Source: Desulfosudaceae bacterium
GTDB taxonomy: Bacteria; Desulfobacterota; Desulfobacteria; Desulfobacterales; Desulfosudaceae
Direction: 5' to 3'
Assembly (NCBI GenBank): GCA_963674745.2
Contig: CAXXDV010000003.1
Coordinates: 1,824,001 to 1,888,000, forward strand
Length of the DNA: 64,000 bases
Every line of letters starts with the position of its first letter. Positions within the stretch are counted from its first letter, which is position 1. The notes under the pieces were generated by a model. The model worked only from the letters and a program-made list of their open reading frames with translations. It searched no databases and was not told the DNA's origin. Made by a program: the position numbers and the translations under genes. Shown piece by piece: positions 18,737 through 34,744 of this stretch.

Positions 18737-19546
18737 ATGAAAAAAGTGGCTATTCTATTAGTATTATTTTTAATTTTTACAGCATTGATTTTTTTTATGA
18801 TGACAAGAAAAGATAGTATTGACAGCGAATCAGCTCAAAAAATCACCGAACAACTAGTTCGTGATGCCGTGTTGATCAAGTTCACGAACGATCGAGGACA
18901 AACCCCACACTATTGGGGAGGTATCCCTTCTGTTAATAAGAACCAATCATGGCCTGTATGCCCGAATTGTGGTAAGCCCCAGACATTCCTCGCTCAGATT
19001 GATACGACGAAAACTCCTGTCCCAGTCCAGATGGATCTCCCTGTTTTATGTTTCTTTGTATGTTTGGACTGCATTGGTACTTGGTGGGACAGTGAAGGCC
19101 CTTTAGGCTTCTCAGTTCTTCGCTTTAGTGGTGTAGGTGATCAAAGTTTAAATAGCGACCTCCCTCCGCGAGAACTCTCAAAGAAGACCATTGAGATGAC
19201 ACTTGGCCACTCACTGCCTTCATGGGGATGCTTGAACCATTATTCGCCAGAACTCTCCAAGCTTTCGTGTGATGCAGACCCTGATAAACCATGGGGTTTG
19301 TATGATGCACTACATCATAAAATATCCTCTGTCTCCACATATGGAGTTCATATGGGAGGATATCCAGATTTCTTTGAGGAGATAGCAACGCCCACGTGCA
19401 AAGAGTGTGGCCGTGAGATGCTCTTGGCTTTACAGGTTTACTCCGAAAACGTTGACTTGCTGGACGATTTGGGCGCTTGCTCACTGTATTTTTTCGTCTG
19501 CAAAGATCATACTGATTCGTCGACTTTGAGATATCAATGCGAATAA
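18737..19546 (+). CDS. DUF1963/YwqG-like cassette protein
   Basis: GG.P...WP.C..CGKP.TFLAQID and GGYP...LALQ...G..YFF motifs; N-terminal TM. Confidence 0.7.
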   Translation: MKKVAILLVLFLIFTALIFFMMTRKDSIDSESAQKITEQLVRDAVLIKFTNDRGQTPHYWGGIPSVNKNQSWPVCPNCGKPQTFLAQIDTTKTPVPVQMDLPVLCFFVCLDCIGTWWDSEGPLGFSVLRFSGVGDQSLNSDLPPRELSKKTIEMTLGHSLPSWGCLNHYSPELSKLSCDADPDKPWGLYDALHHKISSVSTYGVHMGGYPDFFEEIATPTCKECGREMLLALQVYSENVDLLDDLGACSLYFFVCKDHTDSSTLRYQCE

Positions 19547-19562
19547 ATAAAGGTGCCTAACA

Positions 19563-20280
19563 CATACAAGATGACCAGGCTGATGATGTCGCCGATGCCC
19601 GGAACGGATTTCAACAGCATATAGCTGTGGTAATCGTGGCCCTTGGCATGTTTGAGGATATGATATTCAACGCTGGAAAGATGCTGGTCATAAAAGCCGA
19701 TCAGCTGGACATCCAGATCAATGCTTTTCTGGGCGCTGGGATCGTCAAATCGATCTTCGACCAGCTTGCGATTGGCTTTGTACTTTAAGTTTTTTCCGAT
19801 CTCCGGCAGGTTGTACTGGGTGTTGGTGTTTTGGATATGCGCGATGAGTTCGCCCCGTTTGCGCGTCAGATGCATTCTTCTTCGCAGCAGGTCCCGGGTG
19901 GCCCGCATCGCGGCGGGGTATACAAAGGCCACCGGGAAATTGCCGCCCCTGATCAGGCTGGCAATTTTGTATGAGTCGATCCTGTCGTTTTTGGCCTTGC
20001 CGCCATGAATGGCTTTCATGTAAAGGGCATGTCCGAGGATAAACGGAATATTGCGGTTTTCGCAGAAATCTGCTACCCAATACCAGGAGAACATACATTC
20101 CACGGCGATGACAAGATCGTCCAGGAAGGGGGAGATCGCACGTTCGAGTGCATCCGGTTTTGATTTGATTTTTTTGTGATAAACAACCTGACCGTCACTG
20201 TCCAGAATACAGACATACAGTGATCTGGCGTGAAGGTCGATACCGCAGTAATACTTGTGCTGTTTGGTATAGAATTTCAT
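19563..20280 (-). pseudogene. Truncated IS110 transposase
   Basis: Identical to the full copy up to LVILY, then reads out into the attC. Confidence 0.9.
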
Positions 20281-20368
20281 TGGGCTTCCTCCTTTGTTTT
20301 TGGTTTTTGCCAACTCCAATTTCTCAGCATAATGGTATGCTGTTTGAAGGGGGAGGCTCAATGATTAT
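19563..20368 (-). mobile_element. Internally deleted IS110/IS1111-type element in attC
   Basis: Identical to 22297-23102; flanked by the CA core; lacks the 3' non-coding region and the transposase C-terminus. Confidence 0.9.
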
Positions 20369-21509: not shown

Positions 21510-21970
21510 TAGGGAATAAAAATTTTTTAGGGCCTGAGTTTTTACTCCCCCTTTCCGTTTTTTAAACAGAACGGACTCACTGTCTTTAATTCAAAGCGCG
21601 TAGTAAAATAGCTGCTACAAACACATATTGAGGGTCTCTTACGCAGTATCTGCTGCCGGTTTACCAAGTTGAACAACACAGTGGTAAACGCCCTAGAATA
21701 TATTCGGTGACCTCATGCCGCCCTATTCAAAGGTCGGGGTTGATCACGATACTGCCGTGACCATCCAGTTATAATGCAGGGTCGGGTAAGGCGCAGCGTT
21801 TCCTGTTCCGTTTATTATTTAAATGCCGCCACTCTAATCAACGCCAAGGGATCCCAACCGGTTGCTTTATTGATATTTAAGCAGTCGGGCTGCGGAAATT
21901 CAATTTCACATATCACTGTCAAAGTCATTTTCACAGGTCCCAGTTAGGCATCAAGCTGTGGCGGCAAGCT
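21488..21970 (-). ncRNA. Putative bridge/seek RNA region of the IS1111-type element
   Basis: ~480-nt non-coding 3' end with 8-nt matches to the target attC and to the donor junction; RNA ends unknown. Confidence 0.6.
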
Positions 21971-23014
21971 TTACGTCGGAAGAAACCGTTCCATATTAAA
22001 CGGTTCCTTATGTTTGAGCATATAATACACTGTCCGGCCTAACTTGTGGGCCAGGATGGTAAGTGATTTTCCTTTACTGTGCCGTTTGGTCAATCTATTG
22101 ACATAGGCCTTGATCGGTTCGTTGCCTCTTATGGATAGGACGGCTGCTTCAGAAAAGGCCCATTTTAAATGGGCGTTGCCGATTTTGGCGCCGGAGGTGC
22201 CGTAGATTTTTCCGGCTGACTCTGCCCTGCATTTGACCAGCCGGGCATACGAGGCAAAGTCCTGGACGGTCGGGAACCGGCTGATGTCGTAGATTTCATA
22301 CAAGATGACCAGGCTGATGATGTCGCCGATGCCCGGAACGGATTTCAACAGCATATAGCTGTGGTAATCGTGGCCCTTGGCATGTTTGAGGATATGATAT
22401 TCAACGCTGGAAAGATGCTGGTCATAAAAGCCGATCAGCTGGACATCCAGATCAATGCTTTTCTGGGCGCTGGGATCGTCAAATCGATCTTCGACCAGCT
22501 TGCGATTGGCTTTGTACTTTAAGTTTTTTCCGATCTCCGGCAGGTTGTACTGGGTGTTGGTGTTTTGGATATGCGCGATGAGTTCGCCCCGTTTGCGCGT
22601 CAGATGCATTCTTCTTCGCAGCAGGTCCCGGGTGGCCCGCATCGCGGCGGGGTATACAAAGGCCACCGGGAAATTGCCGCCCCTGATCAGGCTGGCAATT
22701 TTGTATGAGTCGATCCTGTCGTTTTTGGCCTTGCCGCCATGAATGGCTTTCATGTAAAGGGCATGTCCGAGGATAAACGGAATATTGCGGTTTTCGCAGA
22801 AATCTGCTACCCAATACCAGGAGAACATACATTCCACGGCGATGACAAGATCGTCCAGGAAGGGGGAGATCGCACGTTCGAGTGCATCCGGTTTTGATTT
22901 GATTTTTTTGTGATAAACAACCTGACCGTCACTGTCCAGAATACAGACATACAGTGATCTGGCGTGAAGGTCGATACCGCAGTAATACTTGTGCTGTTTG
23001 GTATAGAATTTCAT
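21971..23014 (-). CDS. IS110-family DEDD transposase/recombinase
   Basis: CGIDLH, AVE, KNDRIDS, SVPGIG, ESAGK, GNAHLKWAF motifs; GGAGG RBS before ATG 23014. Confidence 0.95.
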   Translation of the reverse strand: MKFYTKQHKYYCGIDLHARSLYVCILDSDGQVVYHKKIKSKPDALERAISPFLDDLVIAVECMFSWYWVADFCENRNIPFILGHALYMKAIHGGKAKNDRIDSYKIASLIRGGNFPVAFVYPAAMRATRDLLRRRMHLTRKRGELIAHIQNTNTQYNLPEIGKNLKYKANRKLVEDRFDDPSAQKSIDLDVQLIGFYDQHLSSVEYHILKHAKGHDYHSYMLLKSVPGIGDIISLVILYEIYDISRFPTVQDFASYARLVKCRAESAGKIYGTSGAKIGNAHLKWAFSEAAVLSIRGNEPIKAYVNRLTKRHSKGKSLTILAHKLGRTVYYMLKHKEPFNMERFLPT

Positions 23015-23214
23015 TGGGCTTCCTCCTTTGTTTTTGGTTTTTGCCAACTCCAATTTCTCAGCATAATGGTATGCTGTTTGAAGGGGGAGGCTCAATGATT
23101 ATCAATGCCACTCACACAGACTCGCAGGGGCGCGCGGCATTGGTTCTGGCGTAGTTTGGAGTTAAACTCACTTTAGCGAAGTCCGCAATCCCTGCTCGCC
23201 GGTGGTGGCGGACG

Positions 23215-23660: not shown

Positions 23661-24281
23661 ATGAATAGGATGTCATATTCGCTGGCCTTGATGATTGTGG
23701 TTGCGTCGTTTGTTTGTGGATGCGCAACTCAATCGTCCAGGCAGAGCCTTATCGAAGACATCGATTCTGTAATCCCTCCGGGGTGGTACACGTTCGACCG
23801 CGGAGATGGAATTTGGGTTATCAGAAAACAACCAGTTCGGATGACCAGCTTTCTGTCCTCCTTGGGTGGGAGTGCAGAACCACACTCCAAAACATATCAG
23901 ATTGTGCTTTCCAATGCTGATTTCATTCCCCCATCGGAATTCCATGTTGTCAGAAAGAAGCAGGAGGAGGTCGACGACTTGCGCAAACAAGTGATGGTCA
24001 TTCCGCATGAGAAGGACAAGACGAGGCATCCACGAGATTGGAAATTCCAGCCTCGCACAAAGGCGGAAGAAAACATGATTCTTGAGTACCGGAATAAGTC
24101 TCAACGGATTAAGCCTCTTCCGAACCTCTACTGGAGGCATCACGCATTCCGTATGGATCAAGGGTTCCTAATGGATTCCTTCGAAGTTGAATCTGATGAA
24201 AAGGAATGCATAGCAGTACTCAAGTCCGTTTTGAGTCTATTCAATGAATATGGAGACCAATCCAATTGGGATAGGGAGTAG
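23661..24281 (+). CDS. Putative lipoprotein cassette
   Basis: Lipobox VCGC; present stop is inside the intron, while the original stop lies in the attC once the intron is removed. Confidence 0.75.
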   Translation: MNRMSYSLALMIVVASFVCGCATQSSRQSLIEDIDSVIPPGWYTFDRGDGIWVIRKQPVRMTSFLSSLGGSAEPHSKTYQIVLSNADFIPPSEFHVVRKKQEEVDDLRKQVMVIPHEKDKTRHPRDWKFQPRTKAEENMILEYRNKSQRIKPLPNLYWRHHAFRMDQGFLMDSFEVESDEKECIAVLKSVLSLFNEYGDQSNWDRE

Positions 24282-24974
24282 CCTCACGGCTACCCCCTCC
24301 CACACCACCTGGCATACGGATCACGTACCAAGGCGGTTCGGCTGGTACTGATGAAACCGGCTGTGAGTTATCCCACCAGCTCTACCGGGTTTTCAGAGAA
24401 AGCTCGCTACGTGAATTTCGGCAGCTGCCGCATTATCCCCGTAAGAGATACTCCCTTACTTGCCACCACCATTTACCCGTGCCATTCGGTCCGGGCACCG
24501 TTCCGGCCTTCACCGGGGTGAGTCCTCCGGGTATACTTCTCCCGCTTAAGGGAGGCCCGGCTCGTTTCCGCCGGCTACTATGCCTTCTGCTGACTTCTCC
24601 CCTGCGGTCAGGGCCGGTTACCCGACCCTCAGCCGTTGTACGGCACAGGAGAGATCTCCCGGGGTAAGCACGTGTCTTTCGGTACGTAAATGCCAAGTTT
24701 ACGGACACGCCTTAAGATGGATAGAGGACTTTGCCTTGTGGTGCAGGCTCGTCCCGGCGTGCGCGCCTTATACTCGATTCCTGTGCGTCATCCCGTACCT
24801 TCGCGGTACCCTGCCGCAGCAGGGCGGCTTCCTCCCGAAGCACCGTCACCGGTACCCCGTTGCACTACCGCTACACCCTTCGCCTCCATCAAGCTGGGTC
24901 TAAGACTTGCCAAAATTATCAAATATATGATAGCCTTGGCTCACTTTTAAGAACATGTGCCGTGCCCGGCACAC
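24265..24974 (-). mobile_element. ORF-less group IIC-attC intron, copy 1 (710 nt)
   Basis: 5' GTGTG, 3' CCCAAT; DV GAACCGCC..GTACG; inserted at A|AC of the attC core, bottom strand. Confidence 0.9.
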
Positions 24975-25071
24975 ACAAAGCCATCGACGGCGACTGAGTA
25001 AACCGCGCCTTCGGCACGGTTCCCTCAGCGCGTCATGGCCGACGTTATCATAATAAAAGGTATAATGTATA

Positions 25072-25347
25072 ATGAAGAAGAAAATCAAAAAACAGAAATC
25101 AGAAATACCAGAAACCGATGATTTCGAGCCTGATTGGCTTTATGACAAGCCTACTGATATCAATAAGCCATATACTGATGAAGAAATTGAACTATTTGTT
25201 GAAGGTTTTATTGATGCACACAGTGACACTCAAGCTTGGAAAGAAACGGTACGCAAGATAGGCATAGAAGGAGCAAAACAACAATTAAGAAACGGTTTTA
25301 AAAATACAGACACAAGAAAAGATCGCAAACTACCATCTTTACATTAA
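25072..25347 (+). CDS. Small hypothetical cassette protein
   Basis: Fills the cassette. Confidence 0.7.
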   Translation: MKKKIKKQKSEIPETDDFEPDWLYDKPTDINKPYTDEEIELFVEGFIDAHSDTQAWKETVRKIGIEGAKQQLRNGFKNTDTRKDRKLPSLH

Positions 25348-25473
25348 TATATGATACCAACGCCACTCACACAGACTCGCAGGGGCGGGCCGCCTTGGCT
25401 TTTGCATAGTTTGGTGTTGAACTCACTTTAGCGAAGTCCGCAAACCCTGTTCGCCGGTGGTGGCGGACGTTAT

Positions 25474-27730
25474 TTGCGACCCGAGGTTGTATGATTGAAT
25501 GTGTAAAAGGAGAAAGACCAACACTTATTACACCTGGCGTGTCCCCGCCAGTACCCTAGGATGGCATGCGTGCTGCGCGCTGTGCAGTGGGTATGAAGCC
25601 CATCCGACAACGTACCGAATCAGGAGAAGGCCGTGAGGCCGAATCCTTTCCGGGAACCCCACCCGGTTAAGGGCCAGGGTCAGAAAGATATGACGAGATT
25701 ATTCGAAGAATCGCACGCGCCGTCAGTCGCCGACCGACCTACGGGGGTTAAGAGGTCGAAGACATGCTTCTCTTGTGCTTGCATGTGCGGAGAGGTTGCA
25801 GGTCTATAACGTGCCTGCACGGGACCCATCAGTCCGTCGGTGTCCAGATTCCGTCTAAGTCTTTCGTTAAGGTCAATCATGCAGAACGGGGGAACCCCGT
25901 CACTTCGCCCGACGCAAGGTCAGGCAGGCATTACCGTAAGGCGTGCTGTGGGAGGGATGGGATTGAGAGGTTGGAAGAAGCAAATGCCGTCGGGAAAGCC
26001 GGCGGATAGAGCATGAAACATGGCTTAATCACGAAGATCGGCGGTATCGCCCCGATGAATAGTGAGCCGACGTCCAACAGGTGTTTCATTGCGAGAGAAT
26101 CTGGAGAACCTTTGCACATGAGAAAGCAAATGACGGCGAAAGCTGGTGCGCTCATGGACGATGCCGGGATGTGGAAAACCATTGACTGGAAGCAGGCCCG
26201 GCATACCGTTAGAAGACTGCAGGTGCGTATCGCAAAGGCTGTAAAGGAAAACAGGTGGAACAAAGTCAAGGCTCTGCAATATCTGTTGACCCGCTCGTTC
26301 CACGCCAGACTACTGGCTGTCAAACGAGTGACTTCCAATAAGGGGAAAAAGACCCCGGGCGTTGACGGTATCCTGTGGCGGGATGCCGGAGCCAAATGGC
26401 GGGCTGTCCTCAGCCTGCACAGACGTGGATACAGGCCCCAGCCGCTGAGCAGAATCTATATTCCCAAAAAGAACGGCAAGAAAAGACCGCTTTCAATACC
26501 CACCATGAACGACAGGACCATGCAGGCGCTATACAAGCAGGCCCTGGCGCCGGTAGCAGAAACCGTGGCCGACAGGAACTCTTACGGCTTCCGGGAAGGC
26601 AGAGCCTGCGCCGATGCCGTTGAAGCCGCCTTCAATGCGCTGTCCAAGCCCAACTCGGCAACATGGGTACTGGAAGGGGACATCAAGGGATGCTTCGACA
26701 ACATCTCCCATGAATGGATGCTAGCAAATATCCCCATGGATAAAGTCGTTCTGGCCAAGTGGCTGAAGGCCGGATATGTCGAGAACGGTATTATGTACCC
26801 GACAAAAAAAGGGAACGCCACAGGGGGGCATTATTAGCCCCACCTTATCAAACCTAGTCCTGGACGGACTGGAGCAAACCGTGCACAATGCGGTCCGGCG
26901 CCGGTCCCGGGTCAACTTTGTCCGCTATGCCGACGATTTTATCATTACCGGTAAATCCAAACGGATACTGGAGATAAACGTCAAACCAGCGGTAGAGGCG
27001 TTCCTGAGTGAGCGCGGCCTGACGTTATCAACCGAAAAGACCGTGATCACTCACATCAAAAAGGGTTTTACCTTCCTCGGGCAGACCTTCCGCAAGCACG
27101 GCAGAAAGCTTTACATTACACCATCTGCCGACGGCGTTCGCGTCCTTATCCGGAAGGTGAGCGAACATATCCGTAAACACGTTGGTTCGCCGATGCCGGT
27201 CCTGATCAAGAAGCTTAACGCAATACTTCGCGGTTGGGCCAATTACCACCGCCACGTGGTATCATCGGAGATCTTCTCGCGTATCGACACCTTTGTGTTT
27301 GAACAACTATGGCGCATGGTCAGACGACGCCACCCAAACAAGCCCAAAGGATGGCTGGTCAACAAATACTGGTCGGCCCCCAATGGAAAACACTGGTTCA
27401 GCGTCAAACACAAAACTGTAAAAGGCGTAAAGGTCTATACGGTTTTACGAACCTGTGCTATTGGTATTAGAAGATACGTGAAAATCAGAGCAGATGCAAA
27501 TCCTTACTCACCGGAAGACGCCGGATACTTCCAGCGACGCCGGGAAAACAAGGAGAGCAAGCTCTCACCGGCTATGTCACATCGTGAATATCGAGCCATG
27601 GCCGCTTAGGAAGTTAACAGCCGGGTCGTCCACCAGAGCGGCCCTTGAAATGCTTGAGCCGTGTGACGGGAAACTGTCACGCACGGTTCTTAGGGGGGAA
27701 AGGGACCGAAAGGTCCCTGCCCTACCCGGT
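25474..27730 (+). mobile_element. Group II intron (non-C class, En-minus IEP) inserted just after an attC GTT core, top strand
   Basis: 5' TTGCG; DV GAGCCGTGTGACGGGAAACTGTCACGCACGGTTC; DVI hairpin; removal restores GTTATGTTTC, complementary to the cassette end GAAACATA(AC). Confidence 0.88.
26118..27609 (+). pseudogene. ltrA: Group II intron RT/maturase with +1 frameshift
   Basis: RVT_N domain, TPGVDG, PQGG, YADD; frame break in the A7 run at 26804-26810. Confidence 0.85.
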
Positions 27731-27739
27731 GTTTCGTTG

Positions 27740-28225
27740 ATGAAAAAGCTAATCTTTCTAATATTGTTCTTTCCAATAATTTGTTTCGCGAGCGAACTGC
27801 CCCAAGCAGATTCCGTTTTAGTGAAAAAACATGATAGGAAGATGTACCTGATAAAAAATGATAAGCCATTCAAGGAATATAAGATCGTTCTCGGAGCTAA
27901 CCCAAAAGGGCATAAAATTCAGGAGGGCGATGAGCGAACACCCGAAGGGAAATATGTGCTTGATTATAAAAAATCAGATAGCGCCTTTTATAAAGCTATC
28001 CATATTTCTTATCCAAACTTACAGGACAAGAAGAAAGCTCAAGAACTTGGCGTTAATCCAGGTGGCGCAATCATGATACATGGACAAAAAAATGGGTTAA
28101 GTTGGCTGGGCTTTATATCTCAATCGTTCGACTGGACTGATGGTTGCATTGCCGTAACAAACGATGAAATGGATGAAATATGGGATTCCGTGAAAATTGG
28201 AACACCTATTCTGATTGAACCGTGA
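27740..28225 (+). CDS. L,D-transpeptidase (YkuD) family cassette protein
   Basis: Signal peptide; GD.RTPEG, IMIHG, WTDGCIAV catalytic motif. Confidence 0.9.
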   Translation: MKKLIFLILFFPIICFASELPQADSVLVKKHDRKMYLIKNDKPFKEYKIVLGANPKGHKIQEGDERTPEGKYVLDYKKSDSAFYKAIHISYPNLQDKKKAQELGVNPGGAIMIHGQKNGLSWLGFISQSFDWTDGCIAVTNDEMDEIWDSVKIGTPILIEP

Positions 28226-28231
28226 AACATA

Positions 28232-28941
28232 ATTGGGATAGGGAGTAGCCTCACGGCTACCCCCTCCCACACCACCTGGCATACGGATCACGTACCAAGG
28301 CGGTTCGGCTGGTACTGATGAAACCGGCTGTGAGTTATCCCACCAGTTCCACCGGGTTTTCAGAGAAAGCTCGCTACGTGAATTTCGGCAGCTGCCGCAT
28401 TATCCCCGTAAGAGATACTCCCTTACTTGCCACCACCATTTACCCGTGCCATTCGGTCCGGGCACCGTTCCGGCCTTCACCGGGGTGAGTCCTCCGGGTA
28501 TACTTCTCCCGCTTAAGGGAGGCCCGGCTCGTTTCCGCCGGCTACTATGCCTTCTGCTGACTTCTCCCCTGCGGTCAGGGCCGGTTACCCGACCCTCAGC
28601 CGTTGTACGGCACAGGAGAGATCTCCCGGGGTAAGCACGTGTCTTTCGGTACGTAAATGCCAAGTTTACGGACACGCCTTAAGATGGATAGAGGACTTTG
28701 CCTTGTGGTGCAGGCTCGTCCCGGCGTGCGCGCCTTATACTCGATTCCTGTGCGTCATCCCGTACCTTCGCGGTACCCTGCCGCAGCAGGGCGGCTTCCT
28801 CCCGAAGCACCGTCACCGGTACCCCGTTGCACTACCGCTACACCCTTCGCCTCCATCAAGCTGGGTCTAAGACTTGCCAAAATTATCAAATATATGATAG
28901 CCTTGGCTCACTTTTAAGAACATGTGCCGTGCCCGGCACAC
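28232..28941 (-). mobile_element. ORF-less group IIC-attC intron, copy 2 (710 nt)
   Basis: Near-identical to 24265-24974; splits an attC at A|AC. Confidence 0.9.
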
Positions 28942-29073
28942 ACCATTCAGCGCAAGAGGATCGCCAGGGCATTCGAGTTTTGAACACTCGAAGATAATTG
29001 ACCATAAAACAACTTTAAGTCAGTCGGAGGAAGCCCTGGCGCCCTTTGGCTGAAGACGTTCTGCATAAAAAAC

Positions 29074-29109
29074 TTGACCGCTAATTTATGGTATGATATA
29101 TAATACCAC
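29074..29109 (+). promoter_or_regulatory. Putative TA promoter/operator
   Basis: TTGACC and TATAAT boxes (spacing imperfect); TGGTAT..ATACCA inverted repeat. Confidence 0.5.
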
Positions 29110-29529
29110 ATGAAAATTGTTTTAGATACAAATGTTCTTTTCACGGGTTTAAAATCTCGAAAAGGGGCCTCTTTCCTCCTGCTCTCATTTTTGCCGAGCA
29201 AGAAGTTTTCGATCGCGATATCCGTCCCTTTGATTATTGAATATGAATCCGTACTAATGAGGGGCAAACTACCGGCATCGATATCTGAGAAAGACATCGG
29301 TGATGTTATTGATTTCCTCTGCCATATTGGGAACAAGCAAGACATATTCTTCCTTTGGCGACCTTGTTTGCCTGATCCATCAGATGATCTTGTTTTGGAG
29401 GTCGCAGTTGCCGGAGATTGCGATGCGATAATCACTTATAATAAGAAACATTTTAAACACGCCGAGAGATTTGGATTGAATGTTTACGACCCGAAGGAAT
29501 TTCTTATTGAAATAGGAGTATTGAAATGA
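29110..29529 (+). CDS. PIN-domain toxin
   Basis: IVLDTNV, DPSDD, IITYNKKHF motifs. Confidence 0.9.
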   Translation: MKIVLDTNVLFTGLKSRKGASFLLLSFLPSKKFSIAISVPLIIEYESVLMRGKLPASISEKDIGDVIDFLCHIGNKQDIFFLWRPCLPDPSDDLVLEVAVAGDCDAIITYNKKHFKHAERFGLNVYDPKEFLIEIGVLK

Positions 29530-29762
29530 GCACTTTAAGCTTACGAATCCCGCACTCTTTGCACGAACAGATTAGGGTTCTTGCTAAAAGGGAAGGTATT
29601 TCCATCAATCAGTTTGTTGCGTCAGCAGCCTCTGAAAAAATGGCCGCCCTATTAACTGAAGAATATATTGAGGCAAGAGCTAAAAAAGGAAGTATAAAAA
29701 AATTTGAGAAAGTGCTTAAAAAAGTGCCGGATTCAGAACCAGACCATTATGACAGAATATAA
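29526..29762 (+). CDS. Ribbon-helix-helix antitoxin (HicB-like)
   Basis: LSLRIP.SLH....A.REGISINQ; overlaps the toxin stop codon. Confidence 0.85.
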   Translation: MSTLSLRIPHSLHEQIRVLAKREGISINQFVASAASEKMAALLTEEYIEARAKKGSIKKFEKVLKKVPDSEPDHYDRI

Positions 29763-29774
29763 TTAATTTGCAGA

Positions 29775-30484
29775 ATTGGGATAGGGAGTAGCCTCACGGC
29801 TACCCCCTCCCACACCACCTGGCATACGGATCACGTACCAAGGCGGTTCGGCTGGTACTGATGAGACCGGCTGTGAGTTATCCCACCAGTTCCACCGGGT
29901 TTTCAGAGAAAGCTCGCTACGTGAATTTCGGCAGCTGCCGCATTATCCCCGTAAGAGATACTCCCTTACTTGCCACCACCATTTACCCGTGCCATTCGGT
30001 CCGGGCACCGTTCCGGCCTTCACCGGGGTGAGTCCTCCGGGTATACTTCTCCCGCTTAAGGGAGGCCCGGCTCGTTTCCGCCGGCTACTATGCCTTCTGC
30101 TGACTTCTCCCCTGCGGTCAGGGCCGGTTACCCGACCCTCAGCCGTTGTACGGCACAGGAGAGATCTCCCGGGGTAAGCACGTGTCTTTCGGTACGTAAA
30201 TGCCGAGTTTACGGACACGCCTTAAGATGGATAGAGGACTTTGCCTTGTGGTGCAGGCTCGTCCCGGCGTGCGCGCCTTATACTCGATTCCTGTGCGTCA
30301 TCCCGTACCTTCGCGGTACCCTGCCGCAGCAGGGCGGCTTCCTCCCGAAGCACCGTCACCGGTACCCCGTTGCACTACCGCTACACCCTTCGCCTCCATC
30401 AGGCTGGGTCTAAGACTTGCCAAAATTATCAAATATATGATAGCCTTGGATCACTTTTAAGAACATGTGCCGTGCCCGGCACAC
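29775..30484 (-). mobile_element. ORF-less group IIC-attC intron, copy 3 (710 nt)
   Basis: Near-identical to the other two; splits a short (~60 bp) attC. Confidence 0.9.
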
Positions 30485-30553
30485 ACCAGGGCATCCAGCA
30501 GACCGCAAAAAGCCGCGGCTGCTGATGCCCGCCGTTATGCATCTTAAAAAAGC

Positions 30554-30582
30554 TTGACAAAGCGTACGCAATAACGTACATA
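30554..30582 (+). promoter_or_regulatory. Putative yefM-yoeB promoter/operator
   Basis: TTGACA-17-TACATA with two CGTAC palindromic cores. Confidence 0.55.
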
Positions 30583-30619
30583 AAGGTAGGTTCAAAAATT
30601 ATATTATAAGAGGTAAATC

Positions 30620-30862
30620 ATGCCGACATTAACTGCCACAGAAGCAAGGTCAAAACTCTATGGCCTGATCGATGAAACAACTGCGTCCCATGAGCCAATA
30701 ATTATAAAAGGCAAGCGCGGTAATGCAGTGCTTATCTCTGAAGATGACTGGCGCTCTATCCAAGAAACAATTTATCTCTTGAATATTCCAGGTATGCGGG
30801 AATCGATACGAGACGGTTTAGCCACCCCCGTCGAGGAGTGTACAGAGGAACTTGATTGGTAA
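30620..30862 (+). CDS. yefM: Phd/YefM antitoxin
   Basis: ATEARSKL...PIII..KRGNAVLIS...ETIYLL motif. Confidence 0.9.
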   Translation: MPTLTATEARSKLYGLIDETTASHEPIIIKGKRGNAVLISEDDWRSIQETIYLLNIPGMRESIRDGLATPVEECTEELDW

Positions 30863-31122
30863 TGTGGCTGATCGTCTTCACAAAGCAAGCGCAAAAAGAC
30901 GCAAAAAAACTTTCCTCTGCCGGTTTAAAGCCAAAAGCAGAGATGTTGATTGCGGTTTTGCGTGAAAATCCTTTTATGACACCTCCTCCCTATGAAAAGT
31001 TATTGGGTGATTTATCAGGGGCGTATTCCCGTCGCATCAATATTCATCATCGTCTTGTCTATCAAGTTCTTGAGGCTGAAAAAACAGTTAAGATTATACG
31101 AATGTGGACTCATTACGAATAA
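30862..31122 (+). CDS. yoeB: Txe/YoeB toxin
   Basis: EKLLGDLSGAYSRRINIHHRLVY...HYE; coupled to the antitoxin. Confidence 0.9.
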   Translation: MWLIVFTKQAQKDAKKLSSAGLKPKAEMLIAVLRENPFMTPPPYEKLLGDLSGAYSRRINIHHRLVYQVLEAEKTVKIIRMWTHYE

Positions 31123-31133
31123 TTTTTTGCATA

Positions 31134-33065
31134 ATCGGGATAGGACTCCCCATTACTGAGGAGCCCTCCCACACCACCTGGCATACGGATCACGTACCAA
31201 GGCGGTTCGGCTGATCAGGAAGATTAGTTTCCGGGTAGATAAAATCCTTTGTCAGTAAAATATTTCTCGGGCATGGCGATGGCTACCCACTTGATTTTGC
31301 TCATGTGCCAGTACTTCTTGCGGGCATTGCCGCAGAGCATGGCGTCCTTGTGAGCGATACCAAGTTTCTCAAGGTTGCGAACCCTGGCTTTCGGATTCTT
31401 CCATTGTTTCCAGACAAGACTCCGTAGTCTTCGCAGTATCCAGATTTTGAGCCCTTTGAGGAAGGACTTGGCTTCCGTGAGCCGGAAGTAGTTCCACCAT
31501 CCCCGAATGTATCGGTTCAACTCCTGAATAACCTGCCGCAGGCTTTTTCCCCGCTTGCGGCTGGTCAGTTCCCTGACCTTGTCTTTGAAGCGTTTCATGC
31601 TTTCGGCATGAACCCGGATTTTTGACTGTCCTTACATTTGCAAATACGTGAATCCGAGAAATTTGCGCAGCCATGGCCTGCTGACGGCACTCTTGTCCTG
31701 GTTTACCTTGAGCTTGAGTTTCACAGTCAGGAACCTGGTGATACTTCGCATTACCCTTTCGGCAGCTTTTCGGCTCCTGCAGTAGATCCTGAAGTCGTCG
31801 GCATAACGGACATATCTGTGCCCTCTTTTCTCCAGTTCTTTGTCCAGTTCGTCCAGGACGATATTGGACAGCAGCGGAGACAGGGGGCCTCCCTGGGGCG
31901 TTCCTTCTTCCGTGTGAACCGCAACCCCTTCGATCATCACGCCGGACCTCAGATATTGCCGTATCACCTTCAATACGCGCTTATCCTTGATCCTTGTGGC
32001 GAGTCTGCTCATCAGCCGGTCATGGTTGACCCGGTCGAAGAATTTGGACAGGTCCATGTCGACGACATGGGTGTATCCGTCTACCATGTGCCGCTTACCC
32101 TGCATAACCGCATCATGCGCGGATCTACCGGGCCTGAACCCATAACTGGATTCAGAAAAGGCGGGCTCCCAGATCTGTTCTACGATCTGGGCGACGGCTT
32201 GCTGGATACACCGGTCAAGCACCGTGGGTATTCCCAGTAAACGCACCCCCCCGCCCGGTTTGGGAATCTCTTTCCTTTTCACCGGCAGCGGTTTGTGGGT
32301 GCCGTTTTGCAGGTCGTTCTTAATTTCAGGCCAATGCCTGGCCAGGTATTTCCCGAGTTGATCGGTTTTCATCCCATCAACTCCGGGCGCTCCCTGGTTG
32401 GCACAAACCTGTTTCCAGGCCCGGATAATGTTACTGCGGTCAAGAATCATCTCCATTAACCGGTCACTTTCTCCCAGACGTTCGGCAATCTGTGACGCTG
32501 CAAATATTTCCATCTGCTGTGGCTTTGTATTCACAAGTACACACCTCCTAATCGTCACTATCATTTACCCGTCCCATTCGGTCCGGGCACCGTTCCGGCC
32601 TTCACCGGGGTGAGTCCTCCGGGTATACTTCTCCCGCTTAAGGGAGGCCCGGCTCGTATCCTCCAGCTACTATGCCATCTGCTGACTTCTCCCATGCGGT
32701 CAGGGCCGGTTACCCGACCCTCAGCCGTTTTCCGGCACATGGGAGATCTCCCGGGGTAAACACATGTCTTTCGATACGTGAATGCCGAGTTTACGGACAC
32801 GCCTTAAGATGGATAGAGGACTTTATCTTGTTGTGCAGACTCGTCCCGGCGTGCGCGCCTTATACTCGATTCCTGTGCGTCATCCCGTACCTTCGCGGTG
32901 CCCCGCCGCAGCAGGGCGGCTTCCTTCCGAAGCACCGTCACCGGCACCCCGTTGCACTACCGCTACACCCTTCGCCTCCATCAGGCTGGGTCTAAGACTT
33001 GCCAAATACGTCAATATCTTATATGTTTGGCTCACTTTTAAGAACATGTGCCGTGCCCGGCACAC
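31134..33065 (-). mobile_element. Full-length group IIC-attC intron
   Basis: 5' GTGTG, 3' CCCGAT; inserted after TTGT on the attC bottom strand; ribozyme closely related to the ORF-less copies. Confidence 0.92.
31224..32534 (-). pseudogene. ltrA: Class C intron RT/maturase with in-frame TAA
   Basis: GAPGVDG, PQGG, YADD, FLGF; TAA at 31634-31632, then the X domain continues in the same frame; GTG start with AGGAGG. Confidence 0.85.
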
Positions 33066-33211
33066 ACAATCAATCAAGCGCAAAGGACAGCAAGGGCACT
33101 CGGGTTTTGAACATTTGGGGGGGGTGAACAACCGTAACCATAAACCAAGTCAGTGGAAGCCCTGGCTGCCATTGGCTTCAGACGTTATCGCTCTCATACA
33201 GAAAAGGACTT

Positions 33212-33937: not shown

Positions 33938-34744
33938 ATGAAGTATAAAATGCCCCTTACTTTTTGTATTATTTTCACCATGGCCATATCGGCGATTTCT
34001 CAAGACGATCACGTCTTTGAAGACATTATCCGCGGTGCTTTTGCTGGACGTGAAGGGACTTTTGTTATCATCGACTGCTCAACTAGCGAAATTCATGATT
34101 TCTATCCGAATACATCCTCAAAAAGAATTGCACCCTGCTCTACATTTAAAATATGGAATACCTTGATTGGACTTGAGAGCGGATTAATTTCCTCATCGGA
34201 TGAATCTTTCTATAAGTGGGATGGCATCGAGCGATCAATTCTGGCATGGAACAAGGACTTGACGTTGCAGGAAGCCTTTCAGGCTTCGTGCGTACCAGCC
34301 TTCCAGTCTCTCGCTCGAAAAATTGGCCCTAAGAAAATGCACTCATGGATTGACAAGATTGGTTATGGAAACAAAGATACATCGGCAGGAATAGATGTTT
34401 TCTGGCTTCCTGCCAGCGGCAGAAGAACCATTTTAATTTCGCCGATGGAGCAAGCGCAACTGATTTACAAACTTATTTCAGGCAATATGCCTTTTTCGGA
34501 TAAATCTATAGCCGCTGTCAAGGACATCATGAAAGTTCGAGAAACCGACCTTGGGACTCTTTATGGCAAAACCGGCACAGCTACAAATGAAACCGGAACT
34601 TATGTCTTAGGATGGTACGTTGGGTTTGTGGAAAGTAAAGGAAAGACATATGCCTTTGCTTGCACAGCAACGGGTGATAACGTTATGGGCAAAGATTCAC
34701 GTGTAATAGTTGAAAGAATTTTGATGAAACAAGGGATATTGTAA
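33938..34744 (+). CDS. Class D beta-lactamase-like (OXA/penicillin-binding) protein
   Basis: Signal peptide; STFK, SCV, YGN, FWL, KTG motifs. Confidence 0.85.
   Translation: MKYKMPLTFCIIFTMAISAISQDDHVFEDIIRGAFAGREGTFVIIDCSTSEIHDFYPNTSSKRIAPCSTFKIWNTLIGLESGLISSSDESFYKWDGIERSILAWNKDLTLQEAFQASCVPAFQSLARKIGPKKMHSWIDKIGYGNKDTSAGIDVFWLPASGRRTILISPMEQAQLIYKLISGNMPFSDKSIAAVKDIMKVRETDLGTLYGKTGTATNETGTYVLGWYVGFVESKGKTYAFACTATGDNVMGKDSRVIVERILMKQGIL

Follow-up and report, generated by a model that had tools for sequence, protein, structure and literature searches.

ORF-less group IIC introns in the attC sites of a Desulfosudaceae genome and their apparently chimeric domain IV

The stretch of DNA analysed here, called the window throughout (64,000 nucleotides (nt) of a Desulfosudaceae bacterium, contig CAXXDV010000003.1, positions 1,824,001 to 1,888,000), contains an array of integron cassettes in which four attC recombination sites are interrupted by group IIC introns. 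Three of these introns are 710-nt copies that lack an open reading frame (ORF), designated S1 to S3, and the fourth, F, is a 1932-nt relative with an ORF for a reverse transcriptase (RT). A search of the whole genome (G000, 99.96% complete) located three further 710-nt copies on a second contig (C1), which gives six short copies, with F as the sole full copy. The coordinates of the four window introns, as well as the hairpins and target sequences quoted for them in the original prediction, proved to be exact. The introns are the following, where EBS1 stands for exon-binding site 1 and the slash marks the insertion point:

24265..24974, minus strand: S1, ORF-less IIC intron, 710 nt; EBS1 ACCA, at TTGT/T, mismatch at -3
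28232..28941, minus strand: S2, ORF-less IIC intron, 710 nt; EBS1 ACCA, at TGGT/T
29775..30484, minus strand: S3, ORF-less IIC intron, 710 nt; EBS1 ACCA, at TGGT/T
31134..33065, minus strand: F, full-length IIC intron, 1932 nt; EBS1 ACAA, at TTGT/T
24295..24344, minus strand: 50-nt stretch of S1 that bears domain V, with the CGC triad, and is the same in each of the seven copies

All four window copies begin with GUGUG and end in CCAAU or CCGAU, which fits the GUGYG/AY rule of group II introns, and the cores of their domain I (DI) match the Rfam model RF02001 with 119-122 bits; RF01998 also matches, and RF00029 remains below threshold on S1-S3 and F. Domains V and VI (DV and DVI) fold with an unpaired UA close to the 3' end, and DV carries the CGC triad, which is counted as a trait of subgroup IIC. 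The fold of the 710-nt copy is more stable than that of shuffled sequences (z = -5.7; 0 of 20 shuffles equally stable). The six short copies differ from one another by 2-8 nt, and their first 505 positions include 33 at which they differ from F; the 50-nt DV stretch is shared, while domain IV (DIV) and DVI are unlike. The earlier statement that the short copies keep the domains of the full copy is therefore right for DV and wrong for DVI, where another hairpin, alike in shape, is present.

The attC sites that received the four window introns are:

24975..25050, plus strand: attC interrupted by S1 in the AAC box of R''
28942..29064, plus strand: attC interrupted by S2
30485..30540, plus strand: attC interrupted by S3
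33066..33190, plus strand: attC interrupted by F

Each of the seven copies interrupts the AAC of the R'' box, in the bottom strand, antisense to the cassettes and with no duplication, and the empty sites, with the intron removed, fold as attC hairpins. The 5' exon ends in TTGT at S1 and F and in TGGT at S2 and S3; over the seven copies the junction is TTGT/T at two and TGGT/T at five (the IIC-attC consensus being TTGT/T), and most relatives use NGTT/N. Since all seven 3' exons differ, and only two C1 copies have the first ~40 nt of attC in common, the insertions are regarded as independent, as had been argued from the flanks; segmental duplication was ruled out by the same differences. The short copies thus combine the lack of an RT ORF with several independent insertions, the traits of non-autonomous introns. 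A census of attC sites over the seven arrays of the genome, made by heuristic calling with a few false calls visible, gave 139 AACA, 81 AACC and 4 other sites (224 in total), and 17 of the 48 sites called in the window array are AACC, so that the sites described as common in the array are in fact a minority. No tyrosine recombinase was found near the array, and three integrase-like genes elsewhere in the genome are, to judge from their sequences, putative integron integrases.

As for the cassettes themselves, the ORF at 23661-24281 has no stop codon before its attC, and S1 supplies it with a new C-terminal end. Cassettes of the PIN-domain and YefM/YoeB toxin-antitoxin types lie at 29110-29760 and 30620-31122, and their attC sites hold S3 and F; the ORF-less copies of C1 likewise adjoin toxin-antitoxin-like cassettes.

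The original prediction had the ORF replaced by ~130 nt. A short DIV is indeed found in its place, but it is not foreign sequence:

24345..24469, minus strand: short DIV of S1, a remnant of the RT start region plus a capping hairpin; S2 and S3 alike

Its first ~65 nt align with the region of the ribosome-binding site (RBS) and start codon of RT introns of the family. When the DIV core is aligned with the 5' ends of RT ORFs, the score is 59 with L081 (shuffle maximum 40) and 51.5 with L052 (45), and with the RT start of F no significant alignment was obtained (35.5 vs a shuffle maximum of 44). None of the 44 parsed DIVs (46 examined) retains the AGGAG of the RBS, and the start codon has been replaced, with neither ATG nor GTG at its position in the 10 of 10 rows that were found independently of that codon, part of which was fixed in the metagenome DIV pattern. 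In 39 of the 46 distinct DIVs, the remnant frame closes at 21 codons owing to a shared 1-nt deletion. The helices of DIV show covariation, with 95% paired and double changes at 11 of 22 pairs, a level that 0 of 500 shuffles attain, and controls in which they were slid reach at most 46% paired. These alignments indicate that the short DIV is a remnant of the RT start region that has lost its RBS and start codon and has conserved its structure. By analogy, its hairpin is a putative RT-binding site; in IIA introns, DIVa is described as the region that binds the intron-encoded protein (PMC2882425).

Relatives were collected from 61 related genomes, from a pattern scan for the 5' end in genome contigs (at least 119 loci) and from a pattern scan for DIV in metagenomes (51 loci). 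The ORF-less DIV family accounts for these 51 metagenome matches, and the named relatives among the matches listed are mostly Thermodesulfobacteriota, which points to that affiliation for G000 too. A related DIV type has matches in 18 of 301 genomes of the class, 5 of the 18 being weak matches (E above 1e-4). The ORF-less form is, then, a large family in Desulfobacterota-type genomes. Nothing close to the ORF-less intron at the DNA level was found in plasmids, where the best matches cover at most 34% of the query.

The comparison of ORF-less copies with the RT intron resident in the same genome reveals a marked difference between DI-DIII (domains I to III) and the start of DIV. Identity is 93% vs 56% in G000, 100% vs 62% in G199, and 99% vs 54% in each of G326 and G328, and given that the last two share their backbone, three independent backbones are represented. 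In trees of 44 introns (33 ORF-less and 11 RT-type), monophyly of the ORF-less introns is rejected on DI by the approximately unbiased (AU) test (1e-43) and is compatible with the DIV tree (AU 0.17, 80 columns). True deletion derivatives (L016, L044 and L048) retain the RBS and start of their parent. Since the ORF-less copies agree with the resident RT intron over DI-DIII but part from it in DIV, they appear from sequence to be chimeras and not simple deletions, and their DIV would not come from the neighbouring F. The recombination presumably took place between conserved flanks (the DIV-start motif and DV).

Two arrangements of intron copies may be mentioned here. The copy at C1:1482610-1483319 and L002, a degraded RT-type intron (G009:C6), have the same DVI type and a nearly identical 3' exon in different attC sites, a pattern that is expected from recombination between intron copies. 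At L156, an RT-type intron has an ORF-less member of its family (EBS1 ACCT, at AGGT) directly upstream, in head-to-tail arrangement.

The sequence that was proposed as EBS1 is the loop of the d3 hairpin, which reads GCCU-GCACCACA-AGGC in S1-S3 and GUCU-GCACAACA-AGAU in F:

24733..24748, minus strand: d3 hairpin of S1; EBS1 ACCA at 24742-24739 (S2 28709-28706, S3 30252-30249)
32825..32840, minus strand: d3 hairpin of F; EBS1 ACAA at 32834-32831

All family-wide counts of loops, stems and junctions in this text are among the matches listed. Of 199 5'-end matches, 70 have a parsable hairpin, the others being cut off, divergent or chance matches, and four were dropped for a flank that was another intron or too short, which left 66 scored introns. 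Loops of the type AAC- stand at NGTT/ junctions in 40 of 44 cases and loops of the type AC-- at NNGT/T junctions in 20 of 20; the two singletons are a CACA loop at GGTG and a CCAA loop at TGGT. Among the intron columns, position 234 covaries best with exon position -2 (95% Watson-Crick, with kin not independent). The pairing has the short form typical of IIC introns, in which a 4-nt loop covaries with exon positions -4 to -1 and an attC hairpin lies upstream. Since the complementarity between loop and junction is as predicted, the loop can be assigned to EBS1, in accordance with the original prediction, and the AAC-/NGTT vs AC--/NNGT pattern implies that the main effect of EBS1 in this intron family is a one-base shift of the insertion point. 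A search for EBS3 (exon-binding site 3) by covariation gave no intron column that was separable from lineage effects, all seven 3' exons beginning with T.

The candidate helper is F itself, whose RT ORF falls into two parts:

31632..32534, minus strand: RT domain of F; AGGAGG RBS followed by a GTG start, YADD motif, premature TAA at 31634-31632
31224..31631, minus strand: maturase/thumb part (X, GIIM) of F, in frame, 3' of the stop

The description of F as RT-encoding is correct as regards the RT ORF, but this ORF is not intact: the in-frame TAA (31632-31634) falls between the RT and X domains, where an intact relative has Cys, and cuts off the maturase domain. An example of an intact RT in the family is that of L071, with 446 amino acids and 86% identity to F. 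The RT belongs to class C (best PDB match, the GsI-IIC RT, E=5.6e-116 vs 5.7e-39 for LtrA). An assembly error is an unlikely cause of the TAA, as short-read contigs (runs X1 and X2) across 31468-31997 are identical; these runs are probably from the source sample and provide no independent confirmation. The other RTs of G000 are 29-37% identical and of other classes (one frameshifted in the window, two intact copies elsewhere) and would be unlikely helpers. Of the resident RT copies in related genomes, that of G328 looks open; those of G006, G009 and G199 apparently carry damage. Short-read contigs offered no interpretable spliced or empty-site joints. Mobilisation in trans, the route proposed beforehand for these introns, remains the likely one for copies that are ORF-less and sit in different attC sites, and it is likely to be past or dormant, given the nonsense codon in the sole class C RT.

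The structure of the copies, their precise insertion in seven different attC sites, the covariation of EBS1 with register and the chimeric make-up are probably best explained by ORF-less IIC introns that enter attC bottom strands, are served in trans and were formed by DIV recombination. It is likely that recombination put the family-wide ORF-less DIV onto the ribozyme of a resident intron, and that the RT of the full-length relative splices and copies the ORF-less introns in trans. By analogy with the IIC-attC and Thermosynechococcus introns, this RT would bind the retained DIV hairpin, the ribonucleoprotein would reverse-splice into the single-stranded attC hairpin, and the 4-nt pairing of EBS1 with IBS1 (intron-binding site 1) would tolerate one mismatch. 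As the helper carries a nonsense codon, the copies probably have to await the arrival of an intact relative before they can move.

Several points weigh against this explanation. A tblastn and PF00078 search found no intact class C RT in G000, where the original prediction had suggested looking for one and where F is the sole class C RT locus, and no family RT was found in G327, a genome of unknown completeness with ORF-less copies (best match 35%). The DIV tree comprises 80 columns, and AU p=0.17 is no proof of a single origin; ORF-less DIVs of different subfamilies are only 53-68% identical, and the DIV structure was predicted from the very alignment with which it was scored. Whether ACAA or ACCA came first is uncertain, and the ACAA stem could be a conversion tract from F. 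In the assembled contigs, no splicing, expression or mobility was observed.

The notion that the EBS1 change tracks the targets holds only loosely. One could suppose that ACCA was a specificity switch, by which AACC-type attC sites closed to the ACAA parent became open to the ORF-less lineage. Five of the six ORF-less copies do stand at TGGT, vs a base rate of 37% (binomial p=0.03; copies not independent), ACCA is the more numerous loop among the short copies of G000 (4/6), and position 3 of EBS1 pairs with exon -3 in 17 of 24 introns family-wide (13 of 17 without G000), with ACA- loops on T at -3 in 9/14 and ACC- loops on G in 8/10 (Fisher p=0.047, kin not independent; p=0.35 before four G327 cases were added). 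Within G000, however, EBS1 matches the target in only 4 of 7 copies (p=1.0), the mismatched ones being two C1 ORF-less copies with ACAA at TGGT and S1 with ACCA at TTGT. ACAA-type loops occur on NGGT in 5/14 cases, including these two copies and RT-derived introns at TGGT in the related genomes G006 and G009; ACC- loops occur on TTGT in 2/10, and one ACCA intron at TTGT among the related genomes bears an RT. The presence of ACCA in the RT-bearing L003 and L156 means, besides, that it is no innovation of ORF-less introns. A specificity switch is accordingly unlikely, and the claim that ACCA extended the range to AACC sites is unsupported, because ACAA introns already sit at TGGT; whichever the direction of the change, a switch of EBS1 is not needed to reach these sites. 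That direction is uncertain. The DI tree unites the ACCA copies in a clade with support of 99/89 (S1 merged with the identical S2) and places the ACAA copies outside it, next to F, which tips the balance slightly towards ACAA first and ACCA as a later retuning. The GUCU/AGGC stem of the two ACAA ORF-less copies is found in 2 of 70 introns, and this, together with four-gamete conflicts among the six short copies, makes a conversion tract from F possible. The change is most likely a minor retuning, gained after the lineage was already in TGGT sites.

Other explanations concern the origin and spread of the short copies. A sister of F could have given rise to them by simple deletion, after which they spread once and became fossils, with the likeness of DIVs across genomes due to convergent decay of the RT start. 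Derivatives of this kind exist in the family (L016, L044 and L048), the helper is broken, and the identity of DIV across genomes is modest. Yet true deletions retain RBS and start, whereas the ORF-less family lacks both and has a 1-nt deletion in common, and the combination of 100% and 62% identity in G199 is not that of a deletion, all of which makes this origin quite improbable. Still less would be expected of RT-independent ribozymes, or of a spread as DNA through recombination between intron copies or integrase-driven shuffling of cassettes. Recombination among copies is evident, integrase-like genes exist elsewhere in the genome, and the two C1 copies share ~40 nt of adjacent attC; however, cassette duplication would copy the 3' exon, which differs in all seven cases, a DNA copy entering a new empty site requires reverse transcription, as established for group II introns, and DIV is conserved at the place where RT binding is expected, so that such a spread has very little probability. 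The short DIV could, lastly, be retained for a 21-codon peptide and not for RNA structure. An ATG-to-stop frame of this length is present in 39/46 distinct DIVs, and the synonymous share is 0.39 in frame vs 0.23-0.25 out of frame. Codon positions are nevertheless equally variable (0.20/0.18/0.21), third positions are least variable outside the search motif, and in the search pattern itself they were unconstrained; the frame is broken in 7/46, and the stop codon lies inside a conserved helix. With no coding signature, a peptide-coding DIV was rejected as scarcely credible.

Returning to the proposal of ORF-less introns served in trans, its parts can be joined into a wider and more tentative reading, which taken as a whole we hold to be possible and not quite probable. 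An old, horizontally spreading ORF-less DIV module would parasitise IIC introns that target attC; it would recombine into a resident RT-bearing intron, replace the ORF, inherit a ribozyme matched to the helper and outnumber this helper until it decays. The hosts would constitute a second IIC clade of attC bottom strands, apart from the S.ma.I2 clade, and a slide of EBS1 from ACAA to AACA would move the insertion point by one base. The RTs of Desulfobacterota form a clade of their own (100/99), and joining them with the RTs of GTACGCC-type attC introns (L201 and L210) costs 14-17 log-likelihood units (AU 0.068 and 0.051; 17 sequences); the published IIC-attC clade may or may not include them.

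An outward promoter match was noticed in F on comparison with the Pout motif in Table 3 of PMC3001079:

32999..33027, plus strand: Pout-like match in F, TTGCCA-17-TATGTT; a consensus match alone

It agrees with 9 of 12 consensus positions and is missing in the ORF-less copies, whose -10 box is altered; such matches number 15 vs 8.9 expected by chance.

The window and the genome contain other elements. An unrelated group II intron at 25474-27730 (plus strand), with RVT_N, RT and X domains and the start TTGCG, occupies an attC R' box (GTTAT/GT) in the top strand; a frameshift interrupts its ORF near 26804, at which point a base is missing from one contig of run X6 (depth 5.6). A third intron type has two matching copies (C1 ~2271120-2273100, plus strand, and C3 ~2339050-2341040, minus strand), with an intact 467-amino-acid RT and an unusual GCGCG start; it lies directly after the GTTA of attC, in the top strand, so that three intron lineages target attC in G000. 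Two IS110-family elements, one full and one partial, stand on the minus strand at ~21700-23100 and ~19530-20360, with a third copy at C3 ~2335-2336 kb; they abut attC sites, apparently in place of the R'' end, and we take them to be IS1111-attC-like. The last cassette (33938-34744) encodes a 268-amino-acid protein of transpeptidase fold, possibly class D beta-lactamase-like. Many tandem palindromic repeats of ~108-130 bp with GGGCAACC...GGTTGCCC ends, at C3 ~1.10-1.22 Mb and elsewhere, are false attC candidates, presumably of the REP/BIME (repetitive extragenic palindrome/bacterial interspersed mosaic element) kind.

Among known systems, the closest precedent is TeI3 of Thermosynechococcus elongatus, where, as PMC2882425 describes and as is found here, ORF-less introns occur in multiple copies that keep remnants of the ORF, and a 1-nt change in DIVa disrupts the frame; mobilisation of ORF-less introns in trans was experimentally shown in that species (Mohr et al. 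2010, PMC2882425). Both families are divided by their EBS sequences into groups with different targets, and a related RT acts in trans there and likely here (PMC2882425). TeI3 is, in contrast, a IIB1/CL intron of single origin within one genome (PMC2882425), while the family of G000 belongs to IIC, targets attC hairpins, has the same DIV type in many genomes and families, and is chimeric with the RT intron resident in each genome. With the IIC-attC introns of the S.ma.I2, Sh.ba.I2 and Ge.s.I1 lineage it shares, as those sources describe them, the class C RT and the antisense insertion in R'' of the attC bottom strand (PMC3001079, PMC7923331), to which the consensus TTGT/T, seen at two of the seven copies, and a candidate Pout-like TTGCCA box in DI, in F only, may be added (PMC3001079). 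It differs from the published IIC-attC introns in its 5' end, in its frequent ORF-less members and in a second register, NGTT/N (EBS1 AACA), which is dominant among the matches listed; Table 3 of PMC3001079 gives an RT accession or ND for each intron, and the term ORF-less appears in that paper's text only in the title of a reference. The ORF-less B.c.I7 of Bacillus cereus E33L and the dnaN introns of Trichodesmium also exist as near-identical ORF-less copies beside a complete relative and are read in their reports as mobile or trans-spliced, as is proposed here, but they differ in that attC targeting is absent and no cross-genome DIV module is described in those reports (PMC2504315, PMC12584367). 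Searches of full texts, without supplements, turned up no description of ORF-less IIC-attC introns, the NGTT/N register or DIV swapping, which does not establish their absence from print. Group II introns without an ORF are called rare in bacteria, and surveys keyed to the RT ORF may miss some (PMC4424553, PMC2504315).

A switched EBS1 is by itself a small effect with precedent, and the breadth of the family, the register shift and the chimeric DIV are of more interest. The natural series of EBS1 variants (ACAA, ACCA, ACCT, AACA and CACA) lends itself to the study of splice-point choice by IIC introns at an attC hairpin. Should the DIV swap be true, it would be a bacterial route by which one RT serves many ORF-less introns. 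A large intron family of this kind, invisible to RT searches and lodged in integron recombination sites, could affect the excision, expression and formation of cassettes.

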